64,000 nt of DNA, from assembly GCA_008632985.1 (NCBI GenBank), contig QPGO01000087.1:186001-250000 (forward strand), given 5' to 3'. The position numbers and the translations under genes are program-made. Positions 14,350 to 50,006 of the stretch are shown piece by piece. The notes below the pieces were generated by a model. That model saw only the letters and a list, made by a program, of their open reading frames with translations, was not told where the DNA came from and searched no databases. This DNA is from Psammoneis japonica (taxonomy: Eukaryota). The stretch's first letter is position 1. The number at the start of each line of letters is the position of its first letter.

Positions 14350-17300
14350 CACTCGGACCGATTTTTCGTCACCGTCCGCTGAAGAATCCGCGAGAACTCA
14401 CGGTGTTTATAACAACAACGGGATTAGAGTGCGCCGGGGCGGGGACGTACGGGCGGCGACATTTCAGTCGGGCTTGTGCATCCCGTGGGCGGACGGCATT
14501 CAAGACCTGCCCCGCCCGGGGATGGACGGAAAGGGGGTGGATGACGGAGGGCATTCAACAATTTCTGAGCCAGGGGCTGAAAAGGGATGGATGGGTTTCA
14601 ACACCCATTTCATTGACCACTCAGTGGTTGGTGATTCCAGACTTTTTCGTGTGGGTCGGCAGGCCAGTGGGTTGGTCTGTGGGTTGGTGGGTCGGTTTGT
14701 GTGCAACAACTCTGTCACCATTTTAAAGTGTGTCCCTTGTTGCTGCAAACAGTGTGAGCAGTTCAGTGGAGTTGGGTTGTGGCTCAAAATTGGAGAAGGA
14801 ACATTCGGTGCATTGGAGTTTGTGGGGACTTCCTGAAAAATGACAAATTCCCTTTGGCAGGTCAGTGGAGCTGGTGTTTTTCAACAGAGTTCAAAATTTG
14901 GGAAAACCAGGGTTGCAAAGCCAATGTGGCACAAGCTGCACCTGAAACAGTCATGTTGAAAAAGCTGTGTCAAGCAACAAGTGACATCAGCATGGCAGCA
15001 ATGGGAAAAAAGAGTGTCCGTGTTGCATGTCACCACCTTGCCACAGCCCTGAAGCTTGCGCGAACTGTCAAATCTGACAGCTGTTCACATTGCTGGTGGC
15101 ACTGCCACTCTGCCCTGCATTCTCTCACACACCTGCTGCACAGCCCTGCCACACTTTCCCATGTGCATGGGCAGTGATGCCATTGCCAATGCCACCCAGC
15201 CAGCCTGGTTTGCTGTGCCAGTCGGGACACCAGAAAATGTCCTGGCATGCATGAGGGGCAGGCACTGGCTGAAGAGTCCATCCCCTGGAAAGCACAGCCA
15301 TTGCTGCAAATGAGCTGGTGAGTTCCTTGGGATCTAGAGCCACCAGTGGCAGGCAATTTATCTCAGAAGATCAGCCTCTTGGTGCAAATGGGCGCAGCAC
15401 ACATGACCAAACAACAGGATGGATGGGACTTGTTTGCCAACTCCTCTTCATCAGATTTGCAAATTTGGTGCTGTTGCCCAGCTGGCCAGCTGGCCTCATG
15501 GGTGAACAGGTCATCAGTTTGGAGGCTCAGCCCTGGCACTGCTTGAGGGCAGCTGTGCTGAAAGTGCAAAGCACTTTTCCATACAAAAACATGCTGGCTC
15601 CATGCCAAGCAAATGGCAAAGCCATGCACTGACCTCAAAGTGAGTTCAACACATGCAATTTGGTGTGTTTCAGTGCAAAATGATGCACGCCAATGTGCTC
15701 ACCCACACACACACACAAAAAAACACAAAACACAACACTGCAACACCGCTGATGCTGAGAGCATGAAAACGCCAATGCCACACCAACCAGCACACTCTGT
15801 CAGAGAATGCAACCTCTCCCAATCCTTTTCTTGCATCTGAGGAAAGTGGCAGCAAGAAAAACAAAAGATCAGTGCAGTGCAAGCCAGTGTGCATGAAGCT
15901 CAAAAAAGCAGACTGAGCATGATCTGCTCAATCGCAGCTTTTGTGCACTGCAGAGCTCACAGCACAACCAAATGGCTCAGCTGAGCTCCAACGTTCCCAG
16001 CGATGCTCAACCAAGCATCAAATGTGACCCTGGAGTTCAGATGAGCGTGCAAAAGCAGTTTGCGTTCTTTTCAGACTTGGGCAAAACTGCCAACACCATG
16101 TCAGCAGTGTGACAGTCCTGCCCCTCTGGTGTGCACCAGAGATGACACCTCAGCAGACTCTGCTCAGGCCCTTGCCGCCTGTGGTGACAAAAAGCCTGAG
16201 AAACCAGAAAAAGAGACAGAGATGAGGTGTCCCAGTCATTGCAGCAGATGCTTCCTTTTCTTGCACTGCCAGAAAATGCCAGTGTGCACCCGGAAGTGGG
16301 GGCTGATGTATGTGCAAGAACATCACTCATGAACTCAAAGGACTCACTCTCTGTTTTTGTTTCTGGGCTGGGGCCAGGGTGCACTGGAAGCCAGGAGGAA
16401 ATTCTTTTAGGGTGGTGGTGCAGTGCACATGGCAGCAGCAGTGGCTGCAATGGCACCCCCCATCTCCACTCTTCCTGCCTTCACAGCAAGCGTTTGTTGA
16501 AGAAGAGGGCAGCTGGCTCCATTCTTGCCCATTGTCCAAGCAGGAGAAAGGAAAAACTCTCAGGCTGCTGCTGCTGCAGTGCTCTCACTGCTGCTGCTCC
16601 CCCACACTGCTGCTCCTTGTGATTCTGTGGGCATTTGCCCAGGAGCAAGGAGGAGCTCTTGTTGCACCACCTGGAGGAGCAGTGCTGTGACAAGCTGCAA
16701 AGTCTGGACATCCCAAATGCTGTGGAATTGTGTGTGGAGGAGCATGCCAACATTAGAGGGCAGTGAGCAAGGTCAGTGCAAGGAGGCTCTGATTTTTGAA
16801 ATCAACCATGCACTTGGAGCATTGACAACCACAGCCAAAGCCCAGCCAGGAGATCAACCCAGATGTTGCTCTGGACAGGAGGGCAGAATGTGGAATGTTG
16901 GCATTGGCCACTGCAGCATCAACACAACATGAGATTGCATCATTTTGCCCTTCAATCTTGGCCAACACCCAGCTGTGGGGTCACACAAATGGCAAAAAGA
17001 GTGCTCCATGTGAGACTTTGGCACCATCTGGCATGATGGCAGTCCTCACATTGTTGTTGTCCTCTGACCATCATTTCAAGACAGATGCAATGGATGCCAC
17101 GGACATTTTTGCACAGAAAACTTGCACCCAACCCAACCACTGAGTGGTCAATGGAACCCCAATTTTTGTTGATTTTACAAAAACTCAAACTGGTTTTTGC
17201 CAGAACTCCCATCTCCACTCCTCACTTTGGTGTGATCCAGGCAGGCCTGGCATGTTCTGTGTGTGCACCCTCCTGTGTGTGTGTGCTTGCACTGGGGTGC

Positions 17301-20300
17301 AGATTGCAGATTCTAGATTTTTCTTTCAGAACAAATGCAGATTTTTGCGGCCCACAAAATGTTGGTGTGGATTCTCTTGTTGGAGCAGGTTGTTTTCTAT
17401 GATGATTGGGATGGCATTCATTGACAACTGTTCAGATGTGGGTGTTGAGACACTCAGAGAAATTTGTGCCTTTTGTGGCATGACCAAAAGATCACAGAAG
17501 AAGCAATCCTCACTTTGGTTTGCAAGCAACAATCTCATGAAAATGAACTTGACAATTGACACAGCCAGATCTCAATCCACAACTGCCGCTGTGAGTTTTG
17601 GCACCCAGGGCTGTGGCCAGAGCACTGCTTTAATTGTTGGAACAGAGAAAATGGACATGAAGGCAACCAGCAGCAACTCCACCAATCCCAGCTGCAATGT
17701 GTGCCACCTTTCTCACTGCTTGTGATGTGGAACAGCATTTTCTTGTGGTGTTGACATTGTTGTTGATGAATGAGCTGCTTGAGATTGCGTTGATGCCCAT
17801 CTCATTCCACAGCAACTCCAGGGTGCCATCTTTGATCTTGCATCAAATTTGACCTCAAAATGTTGGCAAACAGAAACCTTCTTTCTCAATGACAAGAACA
17901 AACTGTTTCCATCTCCAAGAGGTGCTGTCAATGAGCTCTGCACACTGTCCAAAGTCAGCAACATTTTGGCTGTCCAGGAAGATGCCATCATTGACAATGG
18001 TGTGCTGCCCAGCCATGGAGGAGTCTTTGCAACCCTCGCACATTCCAGTGTCTTCTTGTTTGCAAAATTCCTTCTGTCAGGGGCCCACAGCACATTTGCA
18101 ACATGTGCTTCAACTGTGATCTTTGCAAAAAGTGTTGCAACACTGGCACACACAACAAGGACCATGCGTTTGAAAGGCCAGTGTGAGTCATCAGCTCTTC
18201 CACACCTTTCCTGCTCTTGCACAAGGAGCCCCCATTGCACACAAGCATTGCTTGTGCTGCAATGGAGCCAGTGGGAAATGCAAGTGTGCCAGTGATAAAA
18301 GCAAGTGCACAGTGGCTCATGACTCCACCTGCCAAGGTTGCCTGCCTCAACATTGGCACCAAAGAACCTTGCTGCAAGTGTGCTGAGTGCTGGGATTTTT
18401 TTCTTTGCCAGAAGTGCTGTGCAATGCCAAAGAGCATGTGCTTGCAAATGGCTTTCTCAAACTGGCTGGGGTCAACTTGCAACCAGTTTCTGTGGCTCCT
18501 TTGTTGTTCTCCTCCTGAGGAAAAACCAAGTCCTTCACATTCCAACAAGAACACCATTGTTCCTGTGACCACAGCAGTTGTGGAGATCATGACAGACAAG
18601 ACAACAACACCTGGCATCAAAGCTGAAGTTGTGGCGACACTTTTGCTGGGGCAAGAGGTGGCACTCATTAACTTGCCAGAAGCAAAGAGATGAGTGGTTG
18701 ACATCCCAAGGTTGTCCCAGAAGGAGAGTTTGAAGCCAGAGAGAACATCCAAGTCTCCTGCAAACCTTTTGCCAAGGAGACATTGGCCAAGCCAATGAAT
18801 CTCATTGGAAAGGACATGAGTGGTGTCATCTGGCAGTTGCCAGCCCTGATGGCCAAGTTGACCTTGTTGGTGGTGTGCAGGAGGCACAGCTCTCTTGGAT
18901 GATGGGCACTGAAAATTGAGCCCAAGAACCTTTAAGTCATTGAAGACATCTGAGTCTTGAGTGGGTGTGTTGTGTGACATGTCAAGTTGTTCCAATCATT
19001 GTGCCAATGGGCAAGGTGTCAACACAATGTCATGGTGTCCATCAGCTCATTTTGCATGCTTTTGCAGCAGAGTGGCTCTGTGGGTTTCCCACTGTCTTGC
19101 TGAGGCAAGATGCCAAGATGCCACAAAATTAATTTTGGTTGCACTGGCCCACTTCTGCAAGTGGAGCTCTGATGCACAATGTTTGACAGCCCACCAGCCC
19201 ACACCTCATTGACAAGGCACCCAGTTGTGGGTGTGATGAGGACTGAGGCAGCATCAAGTCCACTCACCAGAGATGGACAGCCTCCAGTTTTGCAAACCAC
19301 ACCTTTGGATTTCTCCAGGCAACCACTTCTTGGCAGAGCAGGTGCAAACTGCCCTTTGCTTTGCAGTCTGGTCCAAACCCAGTGGTGCAGAGCTTTCCCT
19401 TTGTCTTGTGAGCATGAGCAGATGAGCCACATGACAGATGCAGACATTTCAAGAGGAGTGTGTGGTGCATGTCACAGCTGTGCTGTGAGATCACAACTTT
19501 CTGATCTCCACAAAGCTGGTGAAAGCCTCCTCAAGGTTGTCATGCTGTGCATTGACAAAAGTCAGTGAAAACCTTTGGGTTCTTCATCACCAGGTCCCTC
19601 CAAGATGGTGTCATCCACCATGACATGTGCTGGAGAGTCCACCTCAAGGGTGTTTGGGCACCTTTGGAGAGAACACATGGCACAAAGCTTCTGCCACCCA
19701 CAAATGTGGGATCATGTGTGAGCAGCCAGGTGCACATCTCTGACAATCATGGTGGCCAAAATGGACACAAGATCCACCCAAGATTTTGTTGATGTGCTGT
19801 GGTGGCAGCATGTCTGAGGACTCAACATGCTCATGAAAAAGCAGTTGCCACTCTGCAACTCCAAAAGCATGAGCTCAATGTGATGTTTCTTTCCTTGCTG
19901 GAGTCCACATTTCTGTCTGGTGCCTCTGACATGCTCAAGAAACTGCCAGTGCAAAAGATTGTTTTGCTTGGCTTTCAGCTTCTTGTCACTGACACTCCAA
20001 AGCAACCATGTGAACCCTTTGATTCTGACTGAGTCTGCTCTCACTGGATGATCATGCTTTCAAACTCTGCCAAAAAATGCTTTCTTCCTTGTTTTTGGCT
20101 TCTTCAGCCTTTCTGTCACAGAGCTCAACAAGTTGTGTCTGTTTGTTCTACAATTTTGTCTGCTTTTCTTTTGGAGAGGTTGACTCAGAGCAGGCAATTT
20201 TTTTTTCTTTGACAGTGCAGATTCACTCTCCTCCTGAAGCTTCATTGTTTGATCATCATGAAGTGTGCTTTGCTGTCCATCCCACCTTGAAGCATTGCTG

Positions 20301-23300
20301 CTGCACTGCTTTTCTGTTTTTCTTTGTTGGGGCAGTCAATGACCTCCAACAACTTTGCCACTTCTGCTTCACATTTTTCTGTGCAGCCACACATCTTTGT
20401 TCTCTTTCCAAGAGTCTGATCCCTTTGTTTTCTTGAAGAATTCCATGTGGCACAAGAGCAAACTCAAGTCAAGATTGAGGTCATCTTTGGGGAAGTGATG
20501 CAACAGATCTGTTGGCAATGAGAAGGCTGAGCTTCAGCTTCCTCCAATTGAGAGAAAGTCATTGCAGAAGCCCCCAATGAACACCAGCAGAGCAAGATGC
20601 AGCACTCTGTGATGAGGTGTGTCTCTTGGAGGCCTGGCTTGCTTTTCCACTGTTCACATCAGCGCCATTTTGCATCTTGCCATCAGGGCCATTTGAAACA
20701 TCATTCTTGAAGATGCCCGTGGGGTCAAGAATTCCAGTCAAGCAATGTGACCCCATCATTCTTTTCTTGAGCAGAAATCTTCAGTTCCTCAACTGAGAGG
20801 ATTGCAAAGAGAAACAGCCACTCTGACAGAATGCTCACAATGTCCAGAATGTCCTCTGGCAACCATTCCTTGAACAACAACATGTCAATGTGATCTGGAG
20901 CTTGAGCAATCCCCAGAGGCAAAGATTTCTGGTTGTGAGAGACATTTGCAATTCTCCCAAAGAGCTGCAGGAATGAGTTGTCATGACATGTCCGTTGGTC
21001 CTCTCCTGTGATCAGCCAGCAGACTGTGACAGTTTGTGAGGATGAGGATCTTTGCACTGGTGTTTGCTTGCTTCATCACACCCTTTGTGTTTGCCATGTT
21101 TGCAACGTGCATCTTGGCCACAATGTTGTCCCAAAACCCTGGCCAGCAGCAGCAGGGCATCTGAGGTGCAGATGTCTTTGATGTTTCAGCATGACCAATC
21201 TTTCAGTGGATCGTGTCATTCCTGCTTAGACACAGGGAGTCATTCCCACTTACACACAGGGATCTCTGTCACAATCAACATGACCTCATCTCATTGTTCC
21301 CCTTCTGCCATCAGCTTTTTGCTGTGATGATGAGCTTTGCAAGGCTTTTGATGCCTTTCTTTTGAAGGGGCTTTTCTGTCATGTTGCAACCAAGCAAGTG
21401 TCTGGCTGCAGTGCACTTGCCACAACCAGTGTTTTGTGGCACTGGAACAGGAGCATCTTTTCCCAAGATGCTTGGTGCACTTCTCACCCCATTTTCCATT
21501 CACAGTGGTGGCACAGCAATGTTGTCTGATTTCTTCTGCTCATGTGGGCAGCATGTGGTGTTCTGTCATGTCATTGTCAATCTCTGCTTCTGGCAATGCA
21601 GTGGGCTTGACAACAAATGTCTTCATGGCTGTCATCATGTTCTGCAGTGCTCACAATGCAGATTTGAGATTTTGGCTCTTTCCTCCCAGGATCAAGAATT
21701 TCATGATGAGTTTGATCACTTTTGCTTTTTACAATGCAAGATGTGTCAAGAAGCTTTGAAGCTTTCCCACAATTTTTTCATCCTTGCTGTGTCCTGTTTT
21801 GGCAACATGGACGCTGCTGTTGTTCAACGACATGACATTTTTCACTTGACTTGGGCACAACTTTTTTCTCATGAAACTTGCTTCTGCACATTGCAATCAC
21901 AGCATGCATGAATCATGATGACTGGCACTGAGCCTGAATTTGATCAGAGTCTCAAGAGGTTCTGGCACTTCCTTCCAATCTTCCAATGCCAAAAATTGAC
22001 CAACTTTGGCTTCCAAACCTGCACCCATCTTTCAAGAGTTGCCAAGTTGCCCCCCTCAAGTTTGTTGGTGTCTTTCTTCAAGCTGGCTTCAATGTGGTTA
22101 ACAGCACCTAAAACCTGCTCACTCTACAGTGCAGCCTGGCTTGATTTGGTGATCCTGGGGCTGGCAGCATCCCCAGGCTGCACATGCTGGCAGATCTCTG
22201 TGCTGTTGTCACCACTGTTGAGGATCAAAAAGGGGGCCCAAGATCCACTTGCCATCTTGTGCCACTGCTGCTGTTGGCTCTGTGGTGGCATTGTCATCCA
22301 CTGAAACTTTGTCAAAGGGCTGCAGTTTAGAAAGCAGCAGGAATGAAAAAGAGTGACTGCACAAATCACTGAGGAAGTGTTTTGGTGATCAGGGCAGCCA
22401 GCAAGTGGCTTGCAAGTGGCATCTGTTGGTGGTGAAAGCACAGGCTCAAGTTGAACAACAGGCCTTCTGTCATCTTCTCCACTCTGCAGCAGCTGACTCC
22501 ACTTTGAACAGAATGCAGTCAACTCCAGCATTGCAGCTGTCAGCAGAGGCAGCCCAAGCTCTCCAGGAGACCCAGTCACCAGGACACTGGCCCACATCCT
22601 GCCTGTTCCCAGGCCATTTTTGGCAGTGAGTGCAGAAGGTGGACTGCCAAATTTGGGTGGGAGCAAAGTGTGGGTAGAGTGCCTGATGAATGCAAGGGGC
22701 CAGATGATTTGCAAGCAGAGAGCATGAGCTGCAAGAGAGCATTCATGAACAAAAACAGCACATGACAGGCTCAGCTTGGGGGCATGCAGGCAGCAGAGCA
22801 TTTTTTTTGAAGCACCAGCAGCCAACAGGGTAAACGACATCAATGTTGACTTGAGTGAATGTGGCCACAGCACTGCCAGCTTAAAGGAAGTGAGCAGAGA
22901 TGTCTTTTGGAAGAGAGCTCCAGCAGTCAGCTGGGACCAAGGATGGCAGCAGCAGCAGCAAGGTGCAAGTGATGTTGGAGGGCACAATGGGTTTGAAGTG
23001 GTGCTGGTGCATGGTGTGAAGCAAGGGGCAAGGTGTGCTGGTGTGCTGCCAGAGATGAAGTGTGCAGTGCACCATGGCCAGGACCAGTTGGAATTGCAGG
23101 TCACCACTGTGGCCGCATGCCAATCACTTTAGCCAGTGTCTTTTGAGTGGTGACCTCCAAGGTGATGCAGGTGGCAGCCCACAGTTTGGCATTGGTGGCA
23201 GTGGAGACAAGTCCAGGCAAGCAGGGCTGGCAAGTGGTTCAACTCAGCACAGTTGGGAGGGGGCTTTGTCCAGCAGTGCATCACATTTGCTGGGGTGGAG

Positions 23301-25750
23301 CAAGGAGAAAAAAACAAAGGTGATCATGTCAGCATTGCACAAGCCATGGATGGTGCACTGGCAAGTGCCACGGCACTGATTCTGCAGATGGCATGAGTCA
23401 AAGTGGGGCAAAAAAAGCAGCAAGCATCAAGTTGGAAAAGCTGAGTGGCATCATCTTCTGTGCTGCTGTTTGCTGGGTCAGGTGAGCAGTTGTTCTTGAG
23501 AATCAGGGCAGCAACAATGCCATCAATGTTTGACAATGGCCCACAGCAGAGAGGTGGTGCTGGCCATGCTGGCAGAGGTGTGGCAGAGCTCTTGCAGTGC
23601 CAAGGCATTGTGTGCTGCCAGGTTGTTGGCATTGTCCTTGGTGGCATGCTTCTCCTGCACATCAAAACAGCTGGCCCTGAAATCCTGGTGCAAAAATCAA
23701 AACAGATGGTGCTGAAATCCTGGTGCAAAAACCTTCCCATGAGTTTGGCTGAGGCCAAAGTTTGTGATGGTCCCATGTGAATTTGATCTCATAAAAAAAT
23801 GTGGCAGAGATGATGGAGTCAGGGAACTTGGTGTGCCTCAACATGGGGACAGCTTGCCCCAAGACTGCCATGTCTGCAGACCTCCTGCATGCCACCCAGA
23901 TTTTGCTGGGTGTTGTTTTGCTCTTGGTCATGTCATCATCAGTCTTTTCCAGGTGCACTGCTTGGGCATTGGCTGCAATCATGTGCTGTGCCCCTGCCAC
24001 CAGCAGCACTGCAGTGAGATCTTGAGTGTCATGCAGGGTGCCAAAGCAGTGTGGTGGCAGGCACAGAAAATCTGGGAGGGGGGGGGGGGCACTCTTGCAG
24101 GGCATCAATTGGAGGCTGGTCACTGTGGAAGATTTTGGCTGTCTCATGGCACAACCAAGTGATTGGGGGCATGCCTTCACTGACAATTGCTCATTGCTCC
24201 CTGGCAGCATGCTGCACCGGTTTCTAGATGTGAGGCCAGCAGAGCCAAAAAGAAGCACAAGGTCGTGCTTGTTGGGTGTGAAAATGGGGTGACTGGCATT
24301 CATCACTTTGGTGTCTTGGTCTGCAGGGTTGAAGCGACTCACCATCTGCTCCTCTCCTCTGGGACTCCTCCCAACAGTTGATCAAGCAGCTTGCTGTGGA
24401 GGGATGCTGCAGCAACCAAAACCTTGCAATTTTTTCTGTGCAATTGTGCATTGGGTGTGGTGTGTTGTCACGTTGTCCATTGCGCACAACCATTCAAGTG
24501 AAAAAAGTTGAGCGGCCCACACAGGCACAGAATTTTTTTCAGCTTTGCATTTGAGGGCAAAATCTGCCTCTGTGATGGTCATTTGCCATCTTTCATTGTG
24601 ACATGTCTCATTTCACTGGGTCCAATGGCCACAACCCTGTTTTGTTTGACAAGTGCCCCACAATGTGATGTCAAGAAAGGATGAGTTGGACAACGATTTG
24701 AGTCAAAAATCTGACTGAGAAGATTCTGCAGATTGCCACAGTGTTGGTGCAATCCCAGCTGCTGCAAATGTGCAACAATCACCTGAAAGCCCTGCAGACT
24801 CCTCTGTTGTCAGCAGTGATGAAGGCTCTCTTCAAGAAGCAATGCACCGAGTAAATTCGTCATCGAGCCGCCTTGACGAACATGCGACAACAAAGAGAAC
24901 TGAGACTGAATGGAGTTTTGTCTTGTCACAAACAAAGCAGGTTCCCATGGTTTCTTGCTGGTTTGAATTCAAATGACATGCCCCACATTGTAAGTTGTTG
25001 ATTGATTGTGTGTCTTGCATTGTGTCTCACAAACACTCAACACTTGTTTCGTCAAACCTTTTTTTTTTTTTCGAAAATTTTCCCACAAACAGCATGTCGT
25101 CCGAGTCGAGTGTGTCAGTGCTCCTGACCCTGTGTCTTAAAGGCTTTTGACAGCAAGGATCAATGAGCCCCTCTTCACTCTGAAGCTCCATGAAAACCTT
25201 CTTGGCCCACTTGTCACTGACTTTTGCTGCTCATCCAAGCTCTGCTCCGGCCCGCCCTCGTCGCGGTCACACAGCTCCTTGCACTTCTCCACCAACTCCA
25301 TCTTCTTCAGCATGTCGCAGGGAATGCCATCAGACGCACACCACCACTTGCATTGTGGGACAGTCCCAAGACAGCGACGGCATGCGAAGAAATGCCGGCC
25401 ACAGCATTGTCCCCTTCAAAACAACACAAAAAACTCGAGTGCTTTGTGCGGACAATGCAAGAGTCTCGCTGACAAATTTGAAACAAGTTTTGAAGTGACA
25501 ACATTGATGTTGACATAAAGCGACAAATGACGAAAGCCTTTGATGGAGCGAAAAGAAGGCCGCATTGTGACAAAAGACGGCGAATGACCGCCGAGGCAGA
25601 ATTCGCCCTTGTTCTCACGAAAAAAAAACAGTGACATCGCGTCGGGAGCTGCGCGAAAAAAGTCGCTCGAACGGTTTCAGGTTGTGCGCGATTGGATTTT
25701 AGATTCCAGATTGTGGAGTAGCTTTTGGAGATGACGCAGCGGCGACCCAT
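14350..25750 (-). mobile_element. Heavily mutated transposon block 1 (TpA/CpG-depleted), tentatively KDZ (Kyakuja-Dileera-Zisupton)-like; boundaries approximate
   Basis: No intact ORF; strong compositional contrast with flanks. Minus-strand remnants in KDZ-like order at ~18.6-17.4 kb: CLVC.D, GGVM, HWP....VCASVAT, PWL, FHE, LNT/TSEQL (frameshifted). Family call is weak. Confidence 0.5.
23661..23730. repeat. 35-bp tandem duplication
   Basis: atcaaaacagctggccctgaaatcctggtgcaaaa followed by atcaaaacagatggtgctgaaatcctggtgcaaaa. Confidence 0.85.
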
Positions 25751-32198: not shown

Positions 32199-35100
32199 CA
32201 GTTTAGGATGGTTCACCCAGCTTCACAGTTTAGATTGCAATGCAAAACTTTGATTGAAAAAAGACAAAGGACTGACAATGTCAGTGTGATGTTGGTTAAT
32301 TTGGTCATGACTTTTTGTTTATTTCCACTCAAAAATGCCTGCTGTTGAGTTATCCAAACTGCACCTCACGCACAGCAAGCTTTCACACGGGTGTTTGGCA
32401 CTGTGACCACAGCAAACCATGTGGTGACATGCTGCCCACTCTCTTAGACTCCTCAAGGCAGCACAAGTGGCAGCTGCCACTGAGAGTGTGGCCTTGGTGC
32501 ATGGTGTCTTGTCACCCCTGTTGACATCCACCACTGCAAATTTGGGTTTTGCAGCTGCTGAGCAGGTCTGCTTTGGGATCTTCTCAATCTTTTTTGCTGG
32601 GTGCATTGTTTTGTCTTTTTTTGCCATCTTGTCTTGTTGCTTGCACCTGCAAGAAAGATTTTCTTTCCTCTGCTGTTGCATCTGTTTTTTCTCTGTGACC
32701 CACAATGTCTGGATGTTGCATGCAAGGGAAGGGTGTTGGCATGCTTGTGTAGATGACTCTTGACAGATGAGACATTTTGGGTGGCTGCTGGGCAGATCTC
32801 CTTCCAGGTCTTCTCAGTTTTTGCTGTGCTGGCAGTGCTCTGTGCTTTTGTTGTTAAAGATGGCAGGTTTGCAGCACTGCACACTGCTTTCCTGCCTCTG
32901 GGTTGGCATGCTTGGGTGCATTTCACAGGCCTCGAATGATGTGCTGCTGGTGTGAAAAAAGACATCAAAAGTTGTTGAACAAATGTCCCAATGACTCAAA
33001 GTCATGCAGAAAGCTGTGCTCATGACATGTGGCTTGTGACCAAAAACATTGATGTCACAGCACAGCATTGCAAGACCCCACCCAGAGCTGCAGCATGCCT
33101 TGTGCTGTGAAGGAATGCTGGTGGTAGAAATTTGGGCTGGGTCATGACAAACCACAAAATGGGGGACAATTTTGCAAGGCCTGCTGGGACAAACTTCAGT
33201 TGCAGCAGTGCACTTGTGCCCCCCACTCTCCCTGCAGGTGATGGCAGCAGGTGCCAGAGCTGGAAGTGATGTCATCAGCTTTAAAGAAAGACACCCAGCA
33301 AATTGGAGAACAGCAAAAGAAGTTGCCAGAAGAGCAAGGAATGCACCAAGGCCAGTGTGCTGAGCTCAGATGAGAGGGTTGGTGTTTTGCCTTTCTGCTC
33401 CCCCCCTCCTCACTGCAGTTAAACTTTTTTGGCTGCAGGGAGGGAAAATACATTTTGGTTGTTTTGTGCATCTGAGGGCAGGGTGAGATCAAACCCAACA
33501 TGTGCTGCTGCCCAACATGCTCACCAACTTGTGATGCATCATTCTTGGAGACATTTTAGCCCCCCTTGCCGTGCACCACCCCCTGATTTGCCCCATGAGC
33601 CCTGCACACTGACACATCTTGGGTTTTGTTCTGAGCTGCTGTGTTGCCAGCTTGAGAGCTCAGAGACAATGTGAGGAGTTGCCATGCGGTGCATCACCTC
33701 CCAACACATCAAGAGGAAAAAGCAAAACTGTCAGGTGCTGATTTGGTGGATGTTGAAGCAGTGGACATGAGGAGTCAGAAATGTTGTGATTTTTTACCCC
33801 ACTTGCCATTGACAAAAACAGAGTCTTGTGGTGATTGGAGAATGTGGGGAATGCAGCATTTGTGACTCTGTGGAAGTTTGCAACAAATGACCCCACAATG
33901 GGAAATGGGGTCTCTTTCAAAACAAACTTTGCAATCTGGACACATGCTGCAGTTTGTCCAAATGGCAAACTTCACATCATTGGAGGAGACTTTCAAGCTT
34001 TGGCCTGTGAAAAGCATGCTGTGACAAAACTTGGCACTGTCTGACATTTTAAAGCCATGTTGAGCAAAATGTCATGGAAGAACAAGCAGCTTGTGTGATG
34101 CAGGCATTTTGGCATGGGCGCAGTTGTCGATCACTGAGCCCTCAACTTCACAGCTTCAGCAGGCTTTCTCAAACATGGAGAAGTGCATGTGTGTGTTTGC
34201 TTCTTTGCTGGTGTGGGTGTCACTTCTGCTGGAGTGATGCCTTCTGCCATCCACACATCCATGCTGCCCATGAGGCAGGCTGAAAAGCTGCCAGAGAAGT
34301 GCTTTGTGAGCTGATCTCCAAGTTTCTTGCACAGTGCTGCTCTCCAACAGTTGAGAAGGGATGAAGGTGCTGTTGGAGGAGAGAATCTTCTGCATGCTTC
34401 TGTGCTCACGTGCCTCAGACATGGCTGGACAGGGCATTTTCCAGCTCAATGCCAACAACTTGACACAACAGAGTTCAACAGGTGCAGGGTCACATGATCG
34501 CACGACACAGAGGAGGCATTTTGTCTCAAAGAATCCCCCTGCCCTCAAGAACACATTTCATGTCACTGAGCAAGTGGCTCTGGTTGCAAACCTTCTGATG
34601 CTTGATGCTGCTTTGTTGTCAATCTTCTTCAAACATTCTCCCCTGCAGAGTGTGCTTGGAGTGGGTCACCCTCTGCTTGCCGTGTGGCATGACACCAGTG
34701 CACGGCTTTGGACACATGAATCAACTCTCATAAAATCTGCTTCCTCATTGCATGCAATGATGAGGAAGCACTTGTAACTTGCTTGTCAATTGAGTGACAA
34801 GATAAAATTCAGAACAAGGTCAACAACTTTTTGCTGAAATGCAGAGTTGAAGAACTCCATGCAAAAAGGCTGTGAGTGGCATGCCAAAACAGAAAGGAAC
34901 CGGCAAAATTGTAGAAAACATCAGCCAGTCTGTGGAGGCAGGTGTGCACCAGAGGTGCACAAGCATCATCTGTTGTCAGCCGCACACACATTTGCACACT
35001 CAGCATGCACAAATGACAAAACGATGAGGTGGGTCACATGCACAGATCTTCAATGCAAGATCTGTCACAACGTGCTGCACCCACAAGAAATTTTGTGGAG

Positions 35101-35677
35101 CAAAATTGAAATTTCCACAATTTCCCTCCACAAACGCATTCAGCCCAACACACTTGGCATCCACATTCTGTCACACCCAACAACACTGTCACTCGCATTG
35201 ACGTCAGACTGTCTGCATCTGGGACACCAATGATCCAGGTGTTGCACTGGCCGTCAAGATTTTTTGAAATAAAACCCGACATGTTTTTCATTCAATCCAA
35301 GTTCATGCTGATTTGTCAAGTCTGTGTTTGTGAAACATTCAACAACAAACATCTCCATCCCCCAATTTAACTGTTTGCCCCCCCTTCCGACAAGCCTGAT
35401 GTGTTTGTTTAATTTTGTGTTAATTTCTGGATGGTGTGTCAATCAATTTTCTGCATCAAAGTTGCCACATGCATTCATCAAGGTAGACTCCACTTGCCTT
35501 CTAAATTTTCTCTCCCTGCCCATTCCACCCTTCTGTCCATGATGCCCCCCCCCATTGCACCTTTTTTCTTGTCCTCTGCTTCCACCCTGTGTCACCAAAT
35601 CTCCAAGTGATTGTTGCTGCACATGCCATTCCATTCGATTCTCTTCTTGACACTCCTTTGTCTCTGTGCATTGGCCA

Positions 35678-38600
35678 TGTCATCTGATGGTCTTGTTTGT
35701 CCTTGGTGCAAACGAGCTGGTTTCTTGTCTGAGTGCGGTCTCAGTGGGCATGTTGCAACCAACTGCCTCTGCTCTGCCATTCTGACCAAGTCTTTTGGTT
35801 GTCCTCATTGCGGACAACATGGTTTTGACTCAGAAAACAATGTGCAGTGTCACCCATCTTGGCACTGCGCTGCTGCATCTGTTCTCCCTTCCCCATTGAC
35901 ACAGTTGTGCCACAAAACCCAATCATCTTCCCTGTCCGGTGGGACATCTCTTTCCTCTCATCCTCTGGATTCCGCCTCCGTTTCCTCCCTTGGGTCCAAC
36001 ACCGACAAACCCAAATGCCCCCATTGCCGTGCCCCCTTTTCCAACATTGCCCTTCATCCACAGAAGTGCTTGCCCTGCCATGAAAAGGAGGAAACGTCCC
36101 TTTGCCGGTTTGCCACATCTTCAAATGCTGCAAATTCATTGCCCCCTCCAGACGACGAATCACTTGATGACCATGATGATCCTGCTGTGTTTGGTTTCAC
36201 CAATGATGATGAACCCCAGCCTTCCCTTCCCAAAGTCCTTTGGAATCCAGATCCACCTCCTCCCACACAATCTGACAACTCTTCTCCAGCTGGCCCTCCC
36301 TCTGCCAGAAATGGACTGCACCCACCCTCCGTCAGACGCTCTGGTTGATTGCGTTCTGCCGCCAATGTTGCTGCCGCCAGTGCAGCCACCAAAAATGCCC
36401 GCCAATTTGTTTTGTTTGCAGATGATGGTGTGTCTGCCCTTGGAGAGGACAGTCCTGTGAATGTCCATGAGTTCATTGGAGCTGAACATCTTGATGGCAG
36501 TTGTGGGCCCCCCTCAATCTCACGTCCAACAGAAGAGCCTGTTCCTCCTCCCCCCAGTGTTGAATCCATTTCGGTTTCTTCCTTTGATCAACACAATCCT
36601 CTGGGACCGGCATGTGATGTCGCCCCTGATGAGGACTTTGATGCACCTCCAGTCCACTCACCCAGCATTGCACCCATGGTGCATTTGCCACATCTGTGTC
36701 ATTGGTCAGGTGTTGCAATTGACTTCATTGACAAAGCAATGAGAATTTTGCATGTGAAGAGCATGCAGAAAAAAGATTGGACATGTCAAAGCCCCCCATC
36801 ACAACCGCCGTGGCAATGAAGCAACTCCTTGGGCCATTTCCCAATGTCCCTCTCCCCCGCACTGCTGCTGTGATGCTTGAATGCAACAATCCAATGCAGC
36901 AGCAGAAGGATGGTCCACAATGTCGTCACTCCCCACCTTTCCCAGTTTGCAGTCTCACCAAGACCCTTCAGGATCTTTTCACTGAGCCAGTGTTCCGTGA
37001 TCTTTCCAAGTTGCAGGTTAATCCAAATGATGTTTGGTCACCTCATGAGCCCCCACTGATGGTGATTTGGATTCCAGCACTGGCCAGGCTGATGGTGTTG
37101 AGATGTTGTTTCCAGATTGTCCTGGTGGCTGGTGATTGTCCACTCAAAGTCAAGACATGGGTGATGGAGAGTGGCAACAACATTGCTCCAATGCCAAGGA
37201 AATGGCCTGTGATTTTCACGTTCACCTTGTCAATTGTTCGGACAAGACCAGAGTCAATGCAGTCAATCCTCAAGGGATGGAGCCTGCAAAGCACTCACTC
37301 ACCATGATTCAAGAGGACTCACACCGTGACTGTTGTTGTTGGTGTCCACTTGGTTTCATGCCCAATTTGGACAAGAAAGACAAGTCTGGGCACCTTGTTG
37401 TTGCCAACTGTCACTGCATTCTCAAGGAGGTGCTCTGTGGGCTGCTTCATTGCCAGGCAAATCTGCCCATTGTCCATGCAACAATGGGCAATCAATGCTG
37501 CTGTGTCAGAGCCACAATGCATTGCAACTCCCTGTTGGGGGACATCCCCAATCAAGAACGCAGTTGTGGCAGAGTCATGAGCCAAAGCAAGACCAAGCGG
37601 TTGTCTCACAACTGCCATGTGCCCTCTCACCTTTCTGATGATCCCCTCCATGCTTGCCAATTCCTTGACCAAGCTTTCATTGAGTTGCTCACTGTTGCTG
37701 CATTGGGTCCAGATCCCAAGGATGACAACAGTCATTGGCACCAGCATGTTGAAAATGTTTCCCGTGAGCATCGTGCAATGACCGCCAAAAAAAGGTTGAG
37801 AATGAGCTTGCTTCATCCCTCATTTGCCGAATGACCACATGCTCCAAAATGTCAAGGAAAGTGTCTGGACAGCACGCAGTGGACAATGCTCACTTTCCAC
37901 TCAACATGGGTGACAACCCATGCAGTGCATTTGGAATGACCATTGCTGACACAATGCATGCAATGGAGGTGGGTGTCATCCCTCAAATGATGGAGGCAAC
38001 AGTTGGAGAGATGTCTGCCAAACGGAAAGAGGAATGTGACCAGATTGCATTGAAATTGTTCTGCACAGCCCGGTGTCGTCCAGGTCAGAGACATGACTGT
38101 CCATGCATTTGAGCCAATGAGGGACTTTCCACACTCAGCCAACTTGCGTGTGACGAGAAGATGGGCAAGCTTTTTGCACTTGCCATCATTGGTCACACAC
38201 ATGCTGGCAGAAATCTGCCAGAAAAGAGGTGCGATCCATCCTTTGACAGCAAAAAGAAAGAACTGCTGACAGCTTTAAAGGAAAGAAGCAACAAGAAGAA
38301 CAGTTGACCAAATCGTCAGAGAGTGAACCCAAGGAAGAGGACCCTGATTCCGTTGAGCCATCCAATGAACAAACAGGCAAAACACACACCACCCCTGTTG
38401 ATGAGAATGTGCCTGATGCACTGCCTAAAGAGACATGGTCTGATGTCCCCTGCGATTCATCCAACTTCCATCACTGCAACTGTGTGATGCAACAGATGCA
38501 TCGTCATGGCCTGTTGGAATTTTGGGAACCATTTTCCAATCAGCTAGATGATGATCGTTTTTTGTTGCACCATGAGATTGCATGCTGGGATGAAACAAAA

Positions 38601-39957
38601 TCATTGAGACAGAAACAATGTGCTGTTGAGACTTCAGCTGATCAATTGTTGACACCTGGACTGCATGGTGTGGTTGGCGGATCAGTGGATGATCGTGACA
38701 ACTTTGCAAGACAAAATTGCCAAGCACTGTCATTTGTGCTGAAGCAGAAAACAAACTTCCGGACTCCTTCACGATGCTCGTAGATGACAAAATGACAGCA
38801 GAAAAATCTGTGGATTGTGGAGTTGATGAGTTGTTGGACTTGTTGCATCACATGCTGCTTTTCCATTTGTTTTGCATTTGTGGGAAGGAACTCTGTGGAA
38901 AAACAGGAAAGGTGGATTTCAAGTGCAGCGTCATCCTGCTTGTGTTCAAGACAAAATCATGCCTTTGCCATGCAATGAACACTCACTTGTTCTGGACTGC
39001 CAAGTTCCATTCTTTGCTGCATCTCATTGTCCACTCTTTCCTTTTTGGGCAGACCATAAATTTCTCTGCCATGATTGGAGAGAGTCACCTGAAATTCTGG
39101 GCCAAGATGCCAGCAAAAACTTGCCAGGTTGCATTGGGTGCAGACAATTTCTTGGACCAACTTGTTGTTTGTTTGCATGACATGGCAGTGCTCAAGAAGG
39201 CACACAGCCTTCTCATCCCTCCCACGGTTGGTCAGGTGAACACATTTTCCTCTGAAGAAAAATTGATGCACCCTTTGTTTGTTGTGAACAGAATTGCCCA
39301 AACTTGCTGCCAGTGTTCAGGAAGCAACGAGAACAGGGTTGTCCCGGAAACGGCAGAGTTGGGCTCCACCCCGCCACTGCAGTTTTTGTTGTTGGCAATG
39401 GAGGAATTGTCAGCTGAGCATGATGAAGTTGTGGTTTGCATGGAGTTTGCCCCACCAGACAAAGGGATTTTAATGCGGGCATGCCTCAATTGTGACAACA
39501 ATGGGTTGTTGTGTAATGCACCCAGGGTCTTGTACGAAGAGGGCGCCGGTGAGAAAAAAGGCACCCTTTCATGCTCCGTGGTTTTGTGTCAGCTGATGAT
39601 GGAACAACACCACTTGCCACAGGACAGTCATGCAAGGAACAGACAAAGACATTGCATGACATGTCTTCCAATGGTGTGGTCGAGCACTGGGAACTTGAAA
39701 CATCAACTGTTGGTCATGGCAGAGATTCTCAGATGATCCCAAAATTTTGCTGTGCAAGCAGAGATGTAATCACAACGGGGTTTTTTTCTGTCCTGGTGCC
39801 CAACAACTGCAATGGAGAAACCATTGAAATGGTGGGATGCTTGAACTCATTGTTGTTTGTTGTGGACAGACACAATGACTGGCCGAAACATTTCCTGTCC
39901 AACAAAGTGCTCCAGCTTCACCTGGACAAATGCCAGAAATGGGAAAATGAGAAATGA
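35678..39957 (+). pseudogene. Plavaka-family transposase pseudogene
   Basis: N-terminal Zn finger CPWC..GF.S..GLSGH; SDKT......EP.......W.PLGFMPNL; LLGD......CG; ADTMHAMEVGVI; WTAKFHSLLH....FG..NF....GESHLKFWAKMPAKTCQ. Broken by frameshifts and TGA stops. Confidence 0.8.
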
Positions 39958-40031
39958 CAACGTGCCTTGGGAAAAAGGAAACATTCACAATTGTTTTGTG
40001 AGCAAACAGACATTGTTCGAATGAGTCAGCT

Positions 40032-40562
40032 CTAAAAGTGTGTTGACTCATCTAAAAGCATTGGTTGGTCGAGGTGGTTCTGTGTCCCAATGTCATCAAA
40101 AAGCATCTGCCCAGTGAAATTGTTGAAGAAAATCTTTGCGTTGTTCTGATGGTGCAAACGGCACACTGTGCAATCTTCAGAGAGGAAAACCTGATTGATC
40201 AGGGCAGGATGATGACCGGGAGAGTCAGGCCAGATGGCAGCACACCAGTCAGAGCCCAAATCATGACAAGGATGGTGGAACTCAATGCTGCAGGCATCAC
40301 AGGAAGGAAGAAGCAAACAACAGGCAATCGCAAAACCAGCACAACCACCGCCAATGTCAATGAAATTAAAAGGGCTTCGAGCATGAGCAGCAAAGAGAGC
40401 AGGGTGACAAATGACCTTGGCAGACAAGGCAAAGCTTGCCGCACCACCATGTGATTCCACACCGCCACCAGCAAAACGACCCATTTGATGATTGGTCGGC
40501 GGCGTGTCACTGCAATGCAGGGAACGCGCGTTCCTACAATGGGAACGATTCACAACAACCAC
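40032..40562 (-). pseudogene. DOT1-like class I SAM-dependent methyltransferase relic
   Basis: ES(H<Y)G, FIDIGGG(C<Y)AGF motif I, SIEF post-I, IFFNNF matching DOT1 IFVNNF, in DOT1-like order. Confidence 0.6.
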
Positions 40563-40769
40563 ATCTCAGTGACAACATGATGCTTCAGTGCCGTTGGAGG
40601 ACCAAAAGAGAATGTGTGAAATTGTGGAGGGGTGCGTTCCCTTGTGCACATGCACACGCATCATTGAGAAGTGGATTGGATCAGTTTGGGCAACAGAGAG
40701 AGCAGTTGGAGAGAGATGGCACAGCTCAGGGAAGTTGAGGGAATGATTGATTGAGATGTGATTGAACAA

Positions 40770-42360
40770 AAAAGAGGCAATGAGAGATGTGGATTTGCAC
40801 AAAAGAACAGGGGGTTTGACACAATTTTTTAAACCAAATGAAGCTGATGTTGTGTCAGGAAACAGGCGCAATGCATGCATTGAGACAAGCACACAAGATG
40901 TGTTTTTTGACACTGATTTAAATGACATGGCAATCTTCATTGAGGCATTGAATTGGCTTGCAATGGAGCACAATTCAAAACAGTGGAAGGTTGATAGAAA
41001 TTCAAACATGGGGTTGGAAATGAGCACTCAAAAATGATGCAAACACCTGTTTGAATCAAGAGAGGACACGCAAGCAATGACAAAACAGAGAAAATCACAT
41101 GCAAAGTGCACTCATTTTGCAACTTGCCTGTTCACAAACCAACAGGGCAAGGACAACAGTTCAACACAAGAGGCAGGAGCCATTGAGAAGGACAAAGAGA
41201 CAGTTGTCACAGGAGCAACAGAGGGAGGAAGTGAAACTTCAAGTGGCAAGTTGGGTTGAAAAGGGCATGACAAAGAGTTGCTGATGAACTGACAACCTGT
41301 GATTTGCCTGTGTGGTGTCACGCAAAGTTGCCATGAGTCCTGCAGTGGCAGCCTTGTTCAATGCACAAAGAAACAAACATGGGGAATTAAACAGATTCCA
41401 GTTCACAGGTGGGGATTTGAGTTCGGCGGTGACTCCCATGGAGGGATGTCTTGTGTTGGATCGTGCACCAGCAGTGGGCAAGAAATTGACAGGATCAATG
41501 CTGACAAAGGCAAAAAATGAAAAAGTGTTTGGCTGCATTGCAAGTTCACAATCTTTGACCAAGAACTTGCCACAGGAGGAGATCACATGAAAACAGTTCT
41601 GCAGGAGTCAAGGAGCATGGTGTCTTCACTGGAGGTGTTCTGGGAAGAATGCAAAGAGGTGTTCAGAACCAAACTCAACTGCAAGAGGAACAATGTGCAG
41701 GACAACATCAGGAGGAGAGTGACAGGCAAGCAGCTGTGTGCGTGCCTTTGATTGTGTTGGAGGCGACTGTCTGACAGGGTGAGTGTCACTTCCTTTGATT
41801 TTGTCTGTGCAGTTGCTGCTTTAGAGGGATCGCTGGTGGAGTGCAAGGATTTGACAAAGGGAAGAGCTGACAAGGACACATGCACTTGGTTCTTGGAAAC
41901 TGTGGTGCCGACGGTGGTGGGACAAGCGCAGTTTGGCAGAAGCACAACTGACATGCTCCAAGAGTGGCTCTCCATTTCATCGGAGGTGTTTGCTCTGCCA
42001 GTGTGCTTGAACTGCCACAACAAGGTGATGGACACGGCAGAGAAGTTGGAAAAGGAAGACAATGTTGCAAGGAGAAGGAAGCTGACAGTGCAAGATGCTG
42101 CTCCTACAAAGCACACAGTGCAGGCAGCGGGGGAATTGGCAAAGAGGAACCAAGGATGGAGCAAGGATGGGATCAAGAAGTGCAATGATCTGTGTCAGTG
42201 GGTGGTGAAAGACAGAGAGAACAACCAAGGATTTGGTGCATGGTTTGAGGAGAAAAGGCGAGAGAAGACAAACTTGTCCAGGGAGGAAAACAAGAAAACA
42301 CAAAAGAGAGGAAAAGAGAAAGGAGAGAGAGGAAGGAGGATGGGCAGCGCCAATGGGTGA
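40770..42360 (+). pseudogene. Transposon accessory ORF remnant (KYT...GWS.xG...YN.L-type domain)
   Basis: WFLETVVPTVVG..F, ISSEVFAL..CLN, TK(H<Y)T...NQGWSKDGIKK(C<Y)NDL..WVVKDR; resembles second ORFs I associate with this transposon type. Confidence 0.5.
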
Positions 42361-44054
42361 GGACCTGCCATTGCAGGTGGTGGCTGCCAGCAATGGAGTG
42401 GAAGCAATTGCTGCCATGGCAACCAACCAAACTGGTGTGTAAACACAAATTGCAGCAAACAACAAAATCCAAAAAAACAGATGAAAAACATTCTGCAAAG
42501 CAGTTTAAAAACAAGAACATGTGGCAGTTGGAAATTTGGATTTGAAAACAACATGGCAAAGAGATAAAATGTGGGATGACTTGGCAGACAAGGAGGGTGG
42601 ATTACAAGCAGCAACAAATGTGTTTAAAGAACAAGAAACCACAAATGTCAAATGGGGCGCAGATCGCCATTGTGTGCAAGAATGACCACACTTAAAAGTG
42701 GGAAGCGATTTGGGCTTTAGAAGCTCACAAACTTGTGCAGTTCTCATGTTGTGTTTAAGGAAAGACTTGGCTCATGAGTCAACAATGATCTGGGATTGCA
42801 GTCAACAAATGCCCAGATTGTGGCAGACGGTCAGACCCAGATTGTTGGCATCCCAGATGTGTGCGACATGCCAAGGTCACAGTTTCTGGCACACAATCAA
42901 TGCAAATGCAATTGGAGTGATTGCAAATTGTTTTGTAACAAGATTGGTCAGTGATGCATTGCCACCAATGCCGCGCATCCATTGTTGGGTTGTTCTCGAG
43001 TTCCAGAAGGGAAAAAGCCGGCTGCTGTTGCTTTGAGAGCTTCATTCATTCACCTGCTTGGACAGGGATTCAAGGGAAAAGGCAAAATGGTCATTGCAAG
43101 ACACCATTTTTACCTCAAGTTGATGGAGAGGAATGGAATCAAGAAATCCACATGACTTGCCACCGAGGATGGAGCGCAGATCAAGTTGGATCCGTTCTTG
43201 CCTGGTGCCGGAGGTGCACTTCGAAATGTCGCTGCTCCCATGGATTTGGATGCTGCCTGCAGCATGGGCATTGTGCATGAATCCAAGCATGTGTTGCTGG
43301 AGGAAAACATGGATGGAACCAACAAGCATGGACATGTCCAAGCACCGCTTGCCTCCAGAGGTGATGTGCAGGCCATCATCAACTCATTTTCCTCAGAACG
43401 AGCAGCTCGTGCCATCATCAGAAAATCTGTTGAAGGCAACAATGTTGAAGAAGCAATGGAGGAGGAGGAGGTTTCATCAGCCACTGCCGGTTGGACTGGC
43501 CCATTGGCACCTTCTGTTGTGCAACTCACACACAAACTGAGTGCCTTGTGCACAGAAACAATCGTCAGCAGCAGCGAGCCCACGGACAATGACAGTGATG
43601 AGGGGAGCTCATGTGCCATCCAGATGTTGTGGCTGTTGTGAAACTATGCTGCAAGCACTGTGACAAGATTGACTTGGTGCCACTTGGAAGAAACAAACAG
43701 AACATTCAAGCACACTTGCGTCCGTGTTCGTCTTATTGTCGCAATGAGCACACAACAAACAAATTATTGCACAATGTCGTGCTGAGTGTGCGAATGCGTG
43801 TGCGGACGACAACAGACGATTTATGCATCTCTGGTGCGTGCGTGCGTGCGTGCACGGTGCGTGCGCAGCAACCAGCAGCCATCATCCATCAGCCATCAGC
43901 GATCTACCGGTATCATTCGCAAGGAGGGAGATCGCAACGAGAAACTGTTTCGCAAGTAGTGCTTACAGCCAGTCTCTTCTTTACCGCTACTCTGTGCATT
44001 CGACAAAGGAAAGCTCTCTGGCGTCTTTGTATCCTGAAACGAGATTTTGGCATC

Positions 44055-49971: not shown

Positions 49972-50006
<35 letters not shown>

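Follow-up and report, generated by a model that had tools for sequence, protein, structure and literature searches.

Apparent near-complete conversion of TpA to TpG or CpA, alongside CpG loss, in two delimited blocks of a Psammoneis japonica contig

Introduction

The closest described counterpart of the DNA considered here is found in the chlorarachniophyte Bigelowiella natans, in whose integrated viruses hypermutation of the dinucleotide step TpA to TpG or CpA is still live (Mettrop et al., 2026; bioRxiv 10.64898/2026.01.13.699255). Here, we analyze a 64,000-nucleotide (nt) stretch of the diatom Psammoneis japonica (GenBank assembly GCA_008632985.1, contig QPGO01000087.1, positions 186,001 to 250,000 of the forward strand; hereafter the window, with positions numbered from its first letter), in which two blocks have lost nearly all TpA and most CpG and one block probably holds a dead Plavaka-like DNA transposon. 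In mutation-accumulation lines of B. natans, 231 of 302 new substitutions fell in either an integrated giant virus or a virophage, and 230 of these 231 were A→G or T→C changes, stated in the preprint to fall on TpA. The rate in the hypermutable regions was ~6e-7 per site per generation, and the giant virus is present as one silent copy, with a Rho of 0.45 in the region of this nucleocytoplasmic large DNA virus. The same preprint describes 124 TpA-poor, CpA- and TpG-rich clusters in the B. natans genome, reports that TpA-poor coding sequences are enriched for reverse transcriptase and DDE domains, and proposes adenine deamination by an ADAT2/TadA-like enzyme.

The diatom locus shares with B. 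natans the change itself (TpA→TpG when the event falls on one strand and TpA→CpA when it falls on the other), its restriction to delimited regions, and a single-copy target for which repeat homology is not needed. It differs in lineage, a stramenopile as against a member of the Rhizaria, and in stage, since only the end state is seen here, with ~90% of TpA gone as against the Rho of 0.45, and a rate has been measured only in B. natans. The targets differ as well; the identified one here is a DNA transposon, with no viral genes found, rather than an integrated virus. Two further features of the diatom locus, the co-depletion of CpG and a rule on the 3′ neighbor that spares TTAA, are absent from the main text of the preprint, where "diatoms," "CpG," "TTAA," "context," and "trinucleotide" occur 0 times each. 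Our literature search found TpA hypermutation only in this preprint and nothing in diatoms; in the accessible text of a paper on diatom mutation rates (PMC6604790), "TpA" occurs 0 times. By this comparison, the process would appear to be of the same kind as that in B. natans, carried near saturation in another lineage, so that the diatom case would be new but the category would not. The statement in the initial annotation of this DNA that no described pathway removes TpA is out of date, as the preprint reports the same signature.

Two other processes leave comparable scars. Fungal repeat-induced point mutation (RIP) converts CpA to TpA, which creates TpA, lowers GC content, and needs duplicated sequence (bioRxiv 10.64898/2026.01.13.699255). 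The changes described here resemble RIP in being irreversible, context-specific transitions in unwanted DNA that leave a dinucleotide scar; they differ in that TpA is destroyed, GC content is unchanged, and the affected DNA is single-copy without internal repeats. Decay of 5-methylcytosine in methylated transposons accounts for the CpG→TpG/CpA half of the changes, as seen in the arms of a terminal inverted repeat (TIR), in one unit of a WD40 gene, and in copies of a small element (methylation being presumed), but it cannot remove TpA, and the TpA-free and CpG-poor zones have different edges.

Results

Nearly all TpA and most CpG are missing from two delimited blocks

For dinucleotide counts, block A was taken as 14450-25700 and block B as 32000-43850. 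In 1-kb windows, the observed/expected ratio (O/E) of TpA was 0.00-0.18 across 15001-25000 and 32001-44000, as against 0.39-0.80 elsewhere; that of CpG was 0.00-0.22 in block A and 0.03-0.60 in block B, as against 0.68-1.30 elsewhere; and those of TG and CA were 1.42-2.26 in the blocks, as against 0.92-1.50. Block A contains 33 TA, 100 CG, 1299 TG, and 1261 CA, and block B contains 60, 169, 1357, and 1264, respectively. Within the block cores (14600-25200 and 32050-43700), 89 TA sites were observed where flank densities predict 857, and density relative to the flanks was ~10% for TpA and ~16% for CpG. Block by block, the counts give a TpA retention of 8% in A and 13% in B, and a CpG retention of 15% and 25%. 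Arithmetic on the same counts shows ~941 TA and CG missing from block A against ~890 extra TG and CA, and ~902 missing from block B against ~862 extra. Mononucleotide composition is equal in blocks and flanks (A, 0.258 versus 0.259). When flank sequence was converted by simulation at 90% of its TA and 84% of its CG sites, the block's 16 dinucleotide frequencies were reproduced (sum of squares, 0.00036 versus 0.0069 for unconverted sequence). The block edges, at 14449, 25700, 32038, and 43841, are sharp to ~50-450 nt, and the neighboring sequence is normal.

The depletion is equally visible in translation. Among stop-to-stop open reading frames (ORFs) of at least 70 amino acids, Tyr makes up 0.1% of residues in the blocks versus 2.2% in the flanks, Cys 6.0% versus 3.5%, His 5.1% versus 3.4%, and Arg 4.1% versus 7.8%, and the terminator is TGA in 152 of 169 block ORFs versus 103 of 197 flank ORFs. 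These counts confirm what the initial annotation had described: TpA near absence, scarce CpG, and abundant TG and CA in both blocks between normal flanks, with Tyr-poor, Cys/His-rich ORFs that mostly end in TGA.

We considered ORF length as evidence of coding in the blocks and rejected it. Long ORFs are expected there because the TAA and TAG stops are gone, and TA-free DNA yields ORFs of ~250 amino acids by chance (mean longest ORF in simulated sequence, 247 amino acids). Two block A ORFs, of 335 and 334 amino acids, are marginally above this expectation (P ~0.05).

Block B holds a probable dead Plavaka-like transposon

Ordinary repeat searches found no internal or mutual repeats in the blocks and neither long terminal repeats nor TIRs. 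Because transitions leave the purine/pyrimidine (R/Y) class of a base unchanged, we collapsed the window to R/Y before a further repeat search, and TIRs emerged only then. The inverted pair 34942-35007/43778-43841 shows 85% nucleotide and 95% R/Y identity over 66 nt, and its right end coincides with the right edge of block B. With the ORF at 38699-39733 (+) as query, exhaustive HMMER searching returned 75 homologues (best E = 1.8e-47), and the Plavaka domain PF18759 was found in three of the 13 homologues scanned (P0138, P0176, and P0146; E 2.7e-10 to 6.9e-07). With the homologues as tblastn queries, a frame-broken transposase could be traced collinearly along 36813-39963 (+), the Plavaka region of the three domain-bearing proteins aligning to 37163-37819. 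The element thus resembles the Plavaka/KDZ transposons of the CACTA superfamily in a transposase collinear with proteins of 1000-1445 amino acids and in an inverted terminal pair of ~66 nt; it differs in that its gene is frame-broken and its transposase ORFs themselves lie below the Pfam threshold. On the strength of the TIR pair, the transposase homology, and the tblastn map, 34942-43841 is most probably a dead Plavaka-like DNA transposon, for which exact ends, CACTA-type termini, and a target-site duplication were looked for and not resolved.

Other searches within block B added little. Among its 91 ORFs of at least 70 amino acids, Pfam (E ≤ 0.01) recognized only the WD40 gene, with sub-threshold matches to Zn_ribbon_19, DUF7385, and DUF2023 in three ORFs; even at E ≤ 1, 22 long ORFs of the two blocks gave only zinc-ribbon and noise matches, all sub-threshold. 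The Cys/His-rich ORF upstream of the transposase is possibly its zinc-finger N terminus. A word-indexed homology search, which covers near lengths only, found no relative of 37136-37831 (+). The peptide strings KCNDL and MQAFWHG lie at 42178-42192 (+) and 34098-34118 (+), and no homologues were found for the ORFs that hold them. Coordinates of all features are collected in Table 1.

Table 1. Features of the window, with the evidence on which each assignment rests
Feature	Position	Strand	Evidence or remark
Triose-phosphate transporter	8554-9588	-	80-89% identity to diatom proteins, including Craspedostauros, Bacillariaceae, and Nitzschia
Block A, TpA-free zone	14449-25700		Counts; CpG-poor core ~14546-25247
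Small multi-copy element with TIR-like arms (24552-24614 and 25552-25611)	24552-25611		R/Y repeat search; depth ~260
CpG-rich, TpA-free segment	25248-25700		Site positions
Host WD40-repeat gene	30030-32198	+	Pfam WD40; X2 contig cover 29914-32223
Block B, TpA- and CpG-poor zone	32038-43841		Counts; right edge is the right TIR of the putative transposon
Probable Plavaka-like (CACTA/KDZ-type) DNA transposon, degenerate	34942-43841	+	TIR pair; transposase homologues
Left TIR arm, block interior	34942-35007	+	R/Y repeat search; alignment
Cys/His-rich ORF upstream of transposase	35611-36345	+	Weak zinc-ribbon hits (E = 0.003), below Pfam cut-off
Degenerate transposase, several frames	36813-39963	+	HMMER; Pfam of homologues; tblastn
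ORF with KHT...KCNDL strings	41752-42357	+	0 Pfam families; no homologue found
Right TIR arm, at block edge; retains CpG and one TpA	43778-43841	-	Alignment; site positions

Copies, homologues, and TIR arms polarize the change as TA→TG/CA

We compared the window with other contigs and classified 40 listed differences of the 183 between them. In 17 of these 40 the window has TG or CA where the other copy has TA, with one case of the reverse; in 11 the window has TG or CA opposite CG, with four of the reverse; and the remaining seven were of other kinds. Two sites, 25325/6 and 25405/6, read TG or CA in the window and CA or TG in another copy, which would indicate a single ancestral site converted independently in two copies.

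The transposase homologues gave the same direction. Of 275 aligned pairs with Tyr in the homologue, 91 have Cys in the window, 39 have His, and one has Tyr; conversely, homologue Cys is never Tyr in the window (0 pairs), and homologue His is Tyr in one pair. Seven alignment columns have a Tyr majority, and at these the window has five Cys encoded by TGY, two Gln, and no Tyr, whereas majority Cys and His columns are retained in five of five and seven of seven cases. At the 18 majority-Arg columns, the window has four TGY and three CAY codons. The conserved FHAFYKYG of the homologues reads FHLFCICG in the window. The protein family is not inherently poor in Tyr, which makes up 1.5-3.9% of the 25 best homologues as against 0.3% of the window ORF; nor are the loci of its relatives TpA-poor, as 21 metagenome loci, found by a search that favored copies keeping two conserved motifs, had a TpA O/E of 0.36-0.72, with only one of 134 1-kb windows below 0.3. 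Within the transposon, the interior TIR arm has CA or TG opposite CG (five sites) or TA (one site) in the arm at the block edge.

We take the direction of change to be TA→TG/CA, as judged from these alignments. The earlier suggestion of a second process, beside CpG decay, that turns TpA into TpG/CpA in delimited blocks is thereby supported: copies, homologues, and TIR arms all polarize it. Nor is low TpA a native property of the transposase family found in block B.

Three of the related sequences are of interest on their own account. One metagenome locus (L007) has a CpG O/E of 0.11 with TpA at 0.55, i.e., CpG decay alone. Another, of 1.5 kb (L017), has TA 0.36, CG 0.16, and TG/CA 1.88, and may represent an intermediate stage of double depletion in another organism. 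The closest homologue of the ORF at 38699-39733, P0121, when used as the query against the other homologues shows Tyr→Cys in 83 of 490 pairs, as against four of 590 for P0122, and may derive from a partly hypermutated copy.

Events fall on both strands and follow a 3′-neighbor rule

Block A has a TG:CA ratio of 1250:1204 and block B one of 1332:1244, so that the two products are about equally frequent in each. Runs tests gave z = +1.2 and +0.9 for the blocks versus -3.0 for the genic flanks, and local overdispersion of TG/CA was absent from the blocks (chi-square P = 0.64 and 0.13). This pattern fits events on DNA, on either strand, site by site.

The few surviving TA sites are strongly biased in context. 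In the blocks, 28 of the 89 survivors lie in TTAA, as against 64 of 1560 flanking TA sites (Fisher P = 1e-15); relative to flank density, 80% of TTAA is retained, versus 0-24% for all other NTAN contexts. A four-parameter model applied per strand, in which survival of TA depends on the base 3′ of the A (A 0.86, C 0.16, G 0.33, T 0.10), fits all 10 contexts. With its parameters taken from the survivors, this model also comes closer to the observed NTGN gains than a symmetric one does (sum of squared errors, 13.96 versus 20.84; r, 0.56 versus 0.12). The context rule per strand is 5′-T-A-[T>C>G>>A], hence the survival of TTAA.

TpA loss and CpG loss are separable

The segment 25248-25700 (452 nt) at the right end of block A holds 34 CG and only two TA. 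At three of the four block edges, the TpA-poor zone runs ~100-450 nt past the CpG-poor zone; at the fourth, at 32.0 kb, the two zones coincide, and the surviving TAs are mostly in TTAA or TTAG. We conclude that TpA loss and CpG loss are separable. From the block counts, -ln(retention) is ~1.3-1.4 times greater for TpA than for CpG, and per site the TpA process would thus have kept pace with, or outrun, the decay of presumably methylated CpG.

Block A is single-copy and matches the reads

In the reads of the public run X1, 99% of the sampled words of 17000-23000 were present, and a k=31 contig of 9484 nt matched 14608-24089 with three differences. Reads and assembly therefore agree in block A, although X1 may be the assembly's own data. 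The block A contig had a k-mer depth of 69.3 in X1, as against 62.1 and 62.9 for flank contigs, and contigs of at least 85% likeness other than this one were nearly absent over 15.7-24.3 kb. Because its depth matches that of the flanks, we regard block A as single-copy. The mutation process is independent of copy number and of repeats.

The sole differences between assembly and X1 in block A are at 20971, 21106, and 21392. Two of the three are at CpG/TpG-CpA sites (window CG versus read TG, and window CA versus read CG) and could be alleles showing continuing CpG decay. At the edges of block A, the stretches 14608-14652 and 25674-26340 fell in k-mer depth bins of 2185 and 1510, versus ~65, with many loose ends and joints; these edge stretches are high-copy or low-complexity DNA. 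Rfam gave 0 matches within the window, and a tandem-repeat search gave nothing relevant to the blocks.

We could not assign block A to a known class of element. Pfam (E ≤ 0.01) gave 0 hits for its 93 ORFs of at least 70 amino acids, an ESM Atlas search with the ORF at 22127-23128 (-) gave no usable match, and a word-indexed search of near lengths with 17991-18995 (-) found no relative. A viral contig search with three block A ORFs found none; it does not follow from these negative results that block A is not viral or mobile DNA. Near its right end lies a small multi-copy element, other copies of which, in genome and RNA, keep TA and CG and carry many transition differences.

CpG loss reaches into a neighboring host gene

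The window is nuclear DNA of a raphid pennate diatom, as judged from its triose-phosphate transporter (Table 1), and the ORFs on either side of the blocks belong to common eukaryotic genes (myosin, ISN1, PTPS, kinase, WD40, bZIP, and subtilase). A search of sequencing runs for this DNA listed no RNA run. Contigs of a second run, X2, cover 13001-14182, 25789-26278, and 26363-32223. One X2 contig joint, 28904→29107, lies within the kinase gene 26662-29295 (-) and skips 202 nt (28905-29106) that are bounded by GT..AG; the skipped stretch looks like a spliced intron, and because of this joint we read X2 as cDNA. At 99% likeness, no X2 contigs were found over 14335-25000 or 32344-33000, where missing cover is not evidence of silence.

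The 3′ part of the WD40 gene (31329-32210) consists of seven in-register units of 126 nt that are 66-71% identical. The last unit (32085-32198) reaches into the edge of block B. It keeps none of 10 consensus CG sites, seven of which are now TG or CA, while the other units keep two to four; one stretch that reads CACCGTATTT in two earlier units reads CACTGTGTTT in the last. TA sites in this unit are too few to polarize TpA (two TG/CA and three other). By this comparison of units, CpG loss extends into the 3′ end of a host gene, a statement that holds for CpG only and not for TpA. The TAA stop of the WD40 gene lies within TTAA, the single context that preserves TpA in the blocks.

These results bear on the earlier claim that the changes are confined to transposon DNA and targeted at repeats. 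The transposon part stands for 34942-43841 only; beyond it the claim is not supported, as block A is single-copy and gave no Pfam matches, no homologues in the searches run, and no internal repeats, and CpG loss enters the WD40 gene.

The right flank, outside the blocks, also contains a near-perfect 68-nt palindrome (49972-50039) and an exact 69-nt tandem duplication (50218-50355).

Discussion

We conclude, with a probability of roughly 0.75, that the window contains two delimited, single-copy stretches between expressed genes that have been altered nearly completely by two context-specific transition processes, and that at least one of them holds a dead Plavaka-like transposon. One process, CpG→TpG/CpA, would be the expected decay of methylated CpG; the other, TpA→TpG/CpA (A:T→G:C at TpA), would act on DNA and on both strands. 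We propose that the target is chosen by silent, CpG-methylated chromatin, and not by repeat homology or element boundaries, because the depletion ignores copy number and is not bounded exactly by element ends and because the blocks sit between X2-covered stretches. The simplest chemistry would be that adenine in DNA is deaminated and the resulting hypoxanthine read as G. ADAT2/TadA-like enzymes have as their natural substrate an A that follows U, and a deaminase of this type is a tentative candidate to which we give a little less than an even chance.

A number of points weigh against this interpretation. Only 40 of the 183 copy differences were classified, and most of the TA-bearing variants were contributed by a single X2 contig and by a minority of X1 depth. 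Polarization relied on remote homologues from other organisms, with 21-56% identity per segment. Three of the 17 copy-difference events lie in the supposedly resistant T-A-A context, whose share by rough estimate is ~4% under the context model and ~21% by chance, and this small sample leaves the rule unconfirmed. A residual remains between the blocks and the conversion simulation (AT, 0.056 versus 0.067; GC, 0.069 versus 0.060); it could reflect a different ancestral composition or an additional minor process. Block A and 32.0-34.9 kb were not identified as foreign DNA in the searches run, and X1, possibly the assembly's own data, is not surely independent. The targeting and the chemistry are both inferences, and almost no TpA targets are left that could reveal present activity.

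Of the other explanations, the one that comes nearest to ours places the chemistry on thymine: the T of V-T-A would be oxidized by a TET/JBP-type dioxygenase to 5-hydroxymethyluracil or 5-formyluracil mispairing with G, or a T:G-directed glycosylase (TDG/MBD4-type) in methylated chromatin would fix replication T:G mispairs as C:G. In double-stranded sequence, A→G and T→C on opposite strands look alike, and the context rule is equally readable as a T preceded by A>G>C>>T. Three pieces of background count for this route: 5-formyluracil causes T→C mutations, TpG.T ranks next to CpG.T among the mispairs on which TDG acts, and in fungi there is a link between KDZ/Plavaka transposons and TET/JBP genes. 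Nevertheless, hyperactive repair of T:G to C:G should shield CpG, yet 84% of CpG is lost, and the authors of the B. natans preprint favor adenine deamination, also without proof (bioRxiv 10.64898/2026.01.13.699255). We regard a thymine route as unlikely, though deserving of attention. It is also conceivable that one dual-specificity deaminase takes C at CpG and A at TpA, making both depletions a single process; they do occur in the same blocks, and ADAT2 enzymes acting on both A and C in DNA are cited in the preprint. The footprints differ, however, with 34 CG but two TA in 25248-25700 and CpGs retained in the right TIR arm, and so does retention (CpG 15% in A and 25% in B, versus TpA 8% and 13%). 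The metagenome locus L007 shows CpG loss alone, the 230 of 231 A→G or T→C mutations of B. natans include no CpG component, and reports of cytosine methylation in Phaeodactylum tricornutum are cited in PMC6604790; a single deaminase is thus improbable.

If avoidance of TA and CG had evolved in the elements themselves, perhaps as an escape from host nucleases or sensors, they would have arrived already depleted, and block A, which has no identified relatives, offers no ancestral composition to compare. For block B, this idea is largely refuted: homologous transposases have normal Tyr and their loci normal TpA, the transposase gene is split over several frames, and conserved Tyr and Arg have been turned to Cys or His by single transitions. 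Moreover, copies of the small repeat keep TA, the two TIR arms of one pair differ at CG/TA sites, and CpG loss enters a host gene, which together make intrinsic composition very improbable. A-to-I editing of transcripts by ADAR- or ADAT-like enzymes, followed by reverse transcription and reintegration, would agree with the preference of known A-to-I editors for a 5′ U (bioRxiv 10.64898/2026.01.13.699255). But strand-specific conversion was looked for and not seen, TG and CA being equal and unclustered by strand; the identified element is, by its TIRs, apparently a DNA transposon, and the blocks are single-copy, so we give RNA editing next to no credence. We are just as disinclined to believe in an assembly or base-calling artifact at modified bases: X1 covers block A in one 9484-nt piece at normal depth with three differences (even if X1 is perhaps not independent), and the amino-acid polarization and frame structure are biologically sensible.

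Returning to adenine deamination guided by chromatin, we would venture, with reserve, a broader proposal: diatoms and chlorarachniophytes may share an old chromatin-guided DNA-editing defense in which adenine is deaminated (or thymine altered) at 5′-TAB-3′ on either strand of silenced DNA. Such a defense, combined with CpG methylation, would erase silent inserts to a TA- and CG-free state without needing repeats and could leak into host genes, and the sparing of TTAA would be the fingerprint of the enzyme.

The end state displayed by the blocks, i.e., no TA, no CG, no Tyr codons, and TGA as the only stop, would provide a cheap genome-wide detector. It also carries a warning for annotators, as spurious long ORFs arise mechanically in such DNA and homology searches fail. 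The 3′-neighbor rule that spares TTAA is a concrete biochemical prediction for an enzyme search, and a natural DNA adenine editor would interest the base-editing field. The process is relevant, too, to transposon dating and to models of diatom mutation rates. If our interpretation is correct, TpA hypermutation is not peculiar to one chlorarachniophyte but occurs also in diatoms, which are major primary producers of the ocean, and this would suggest a widespread eukaryotic genome defense unlike RIP or APOBEC.

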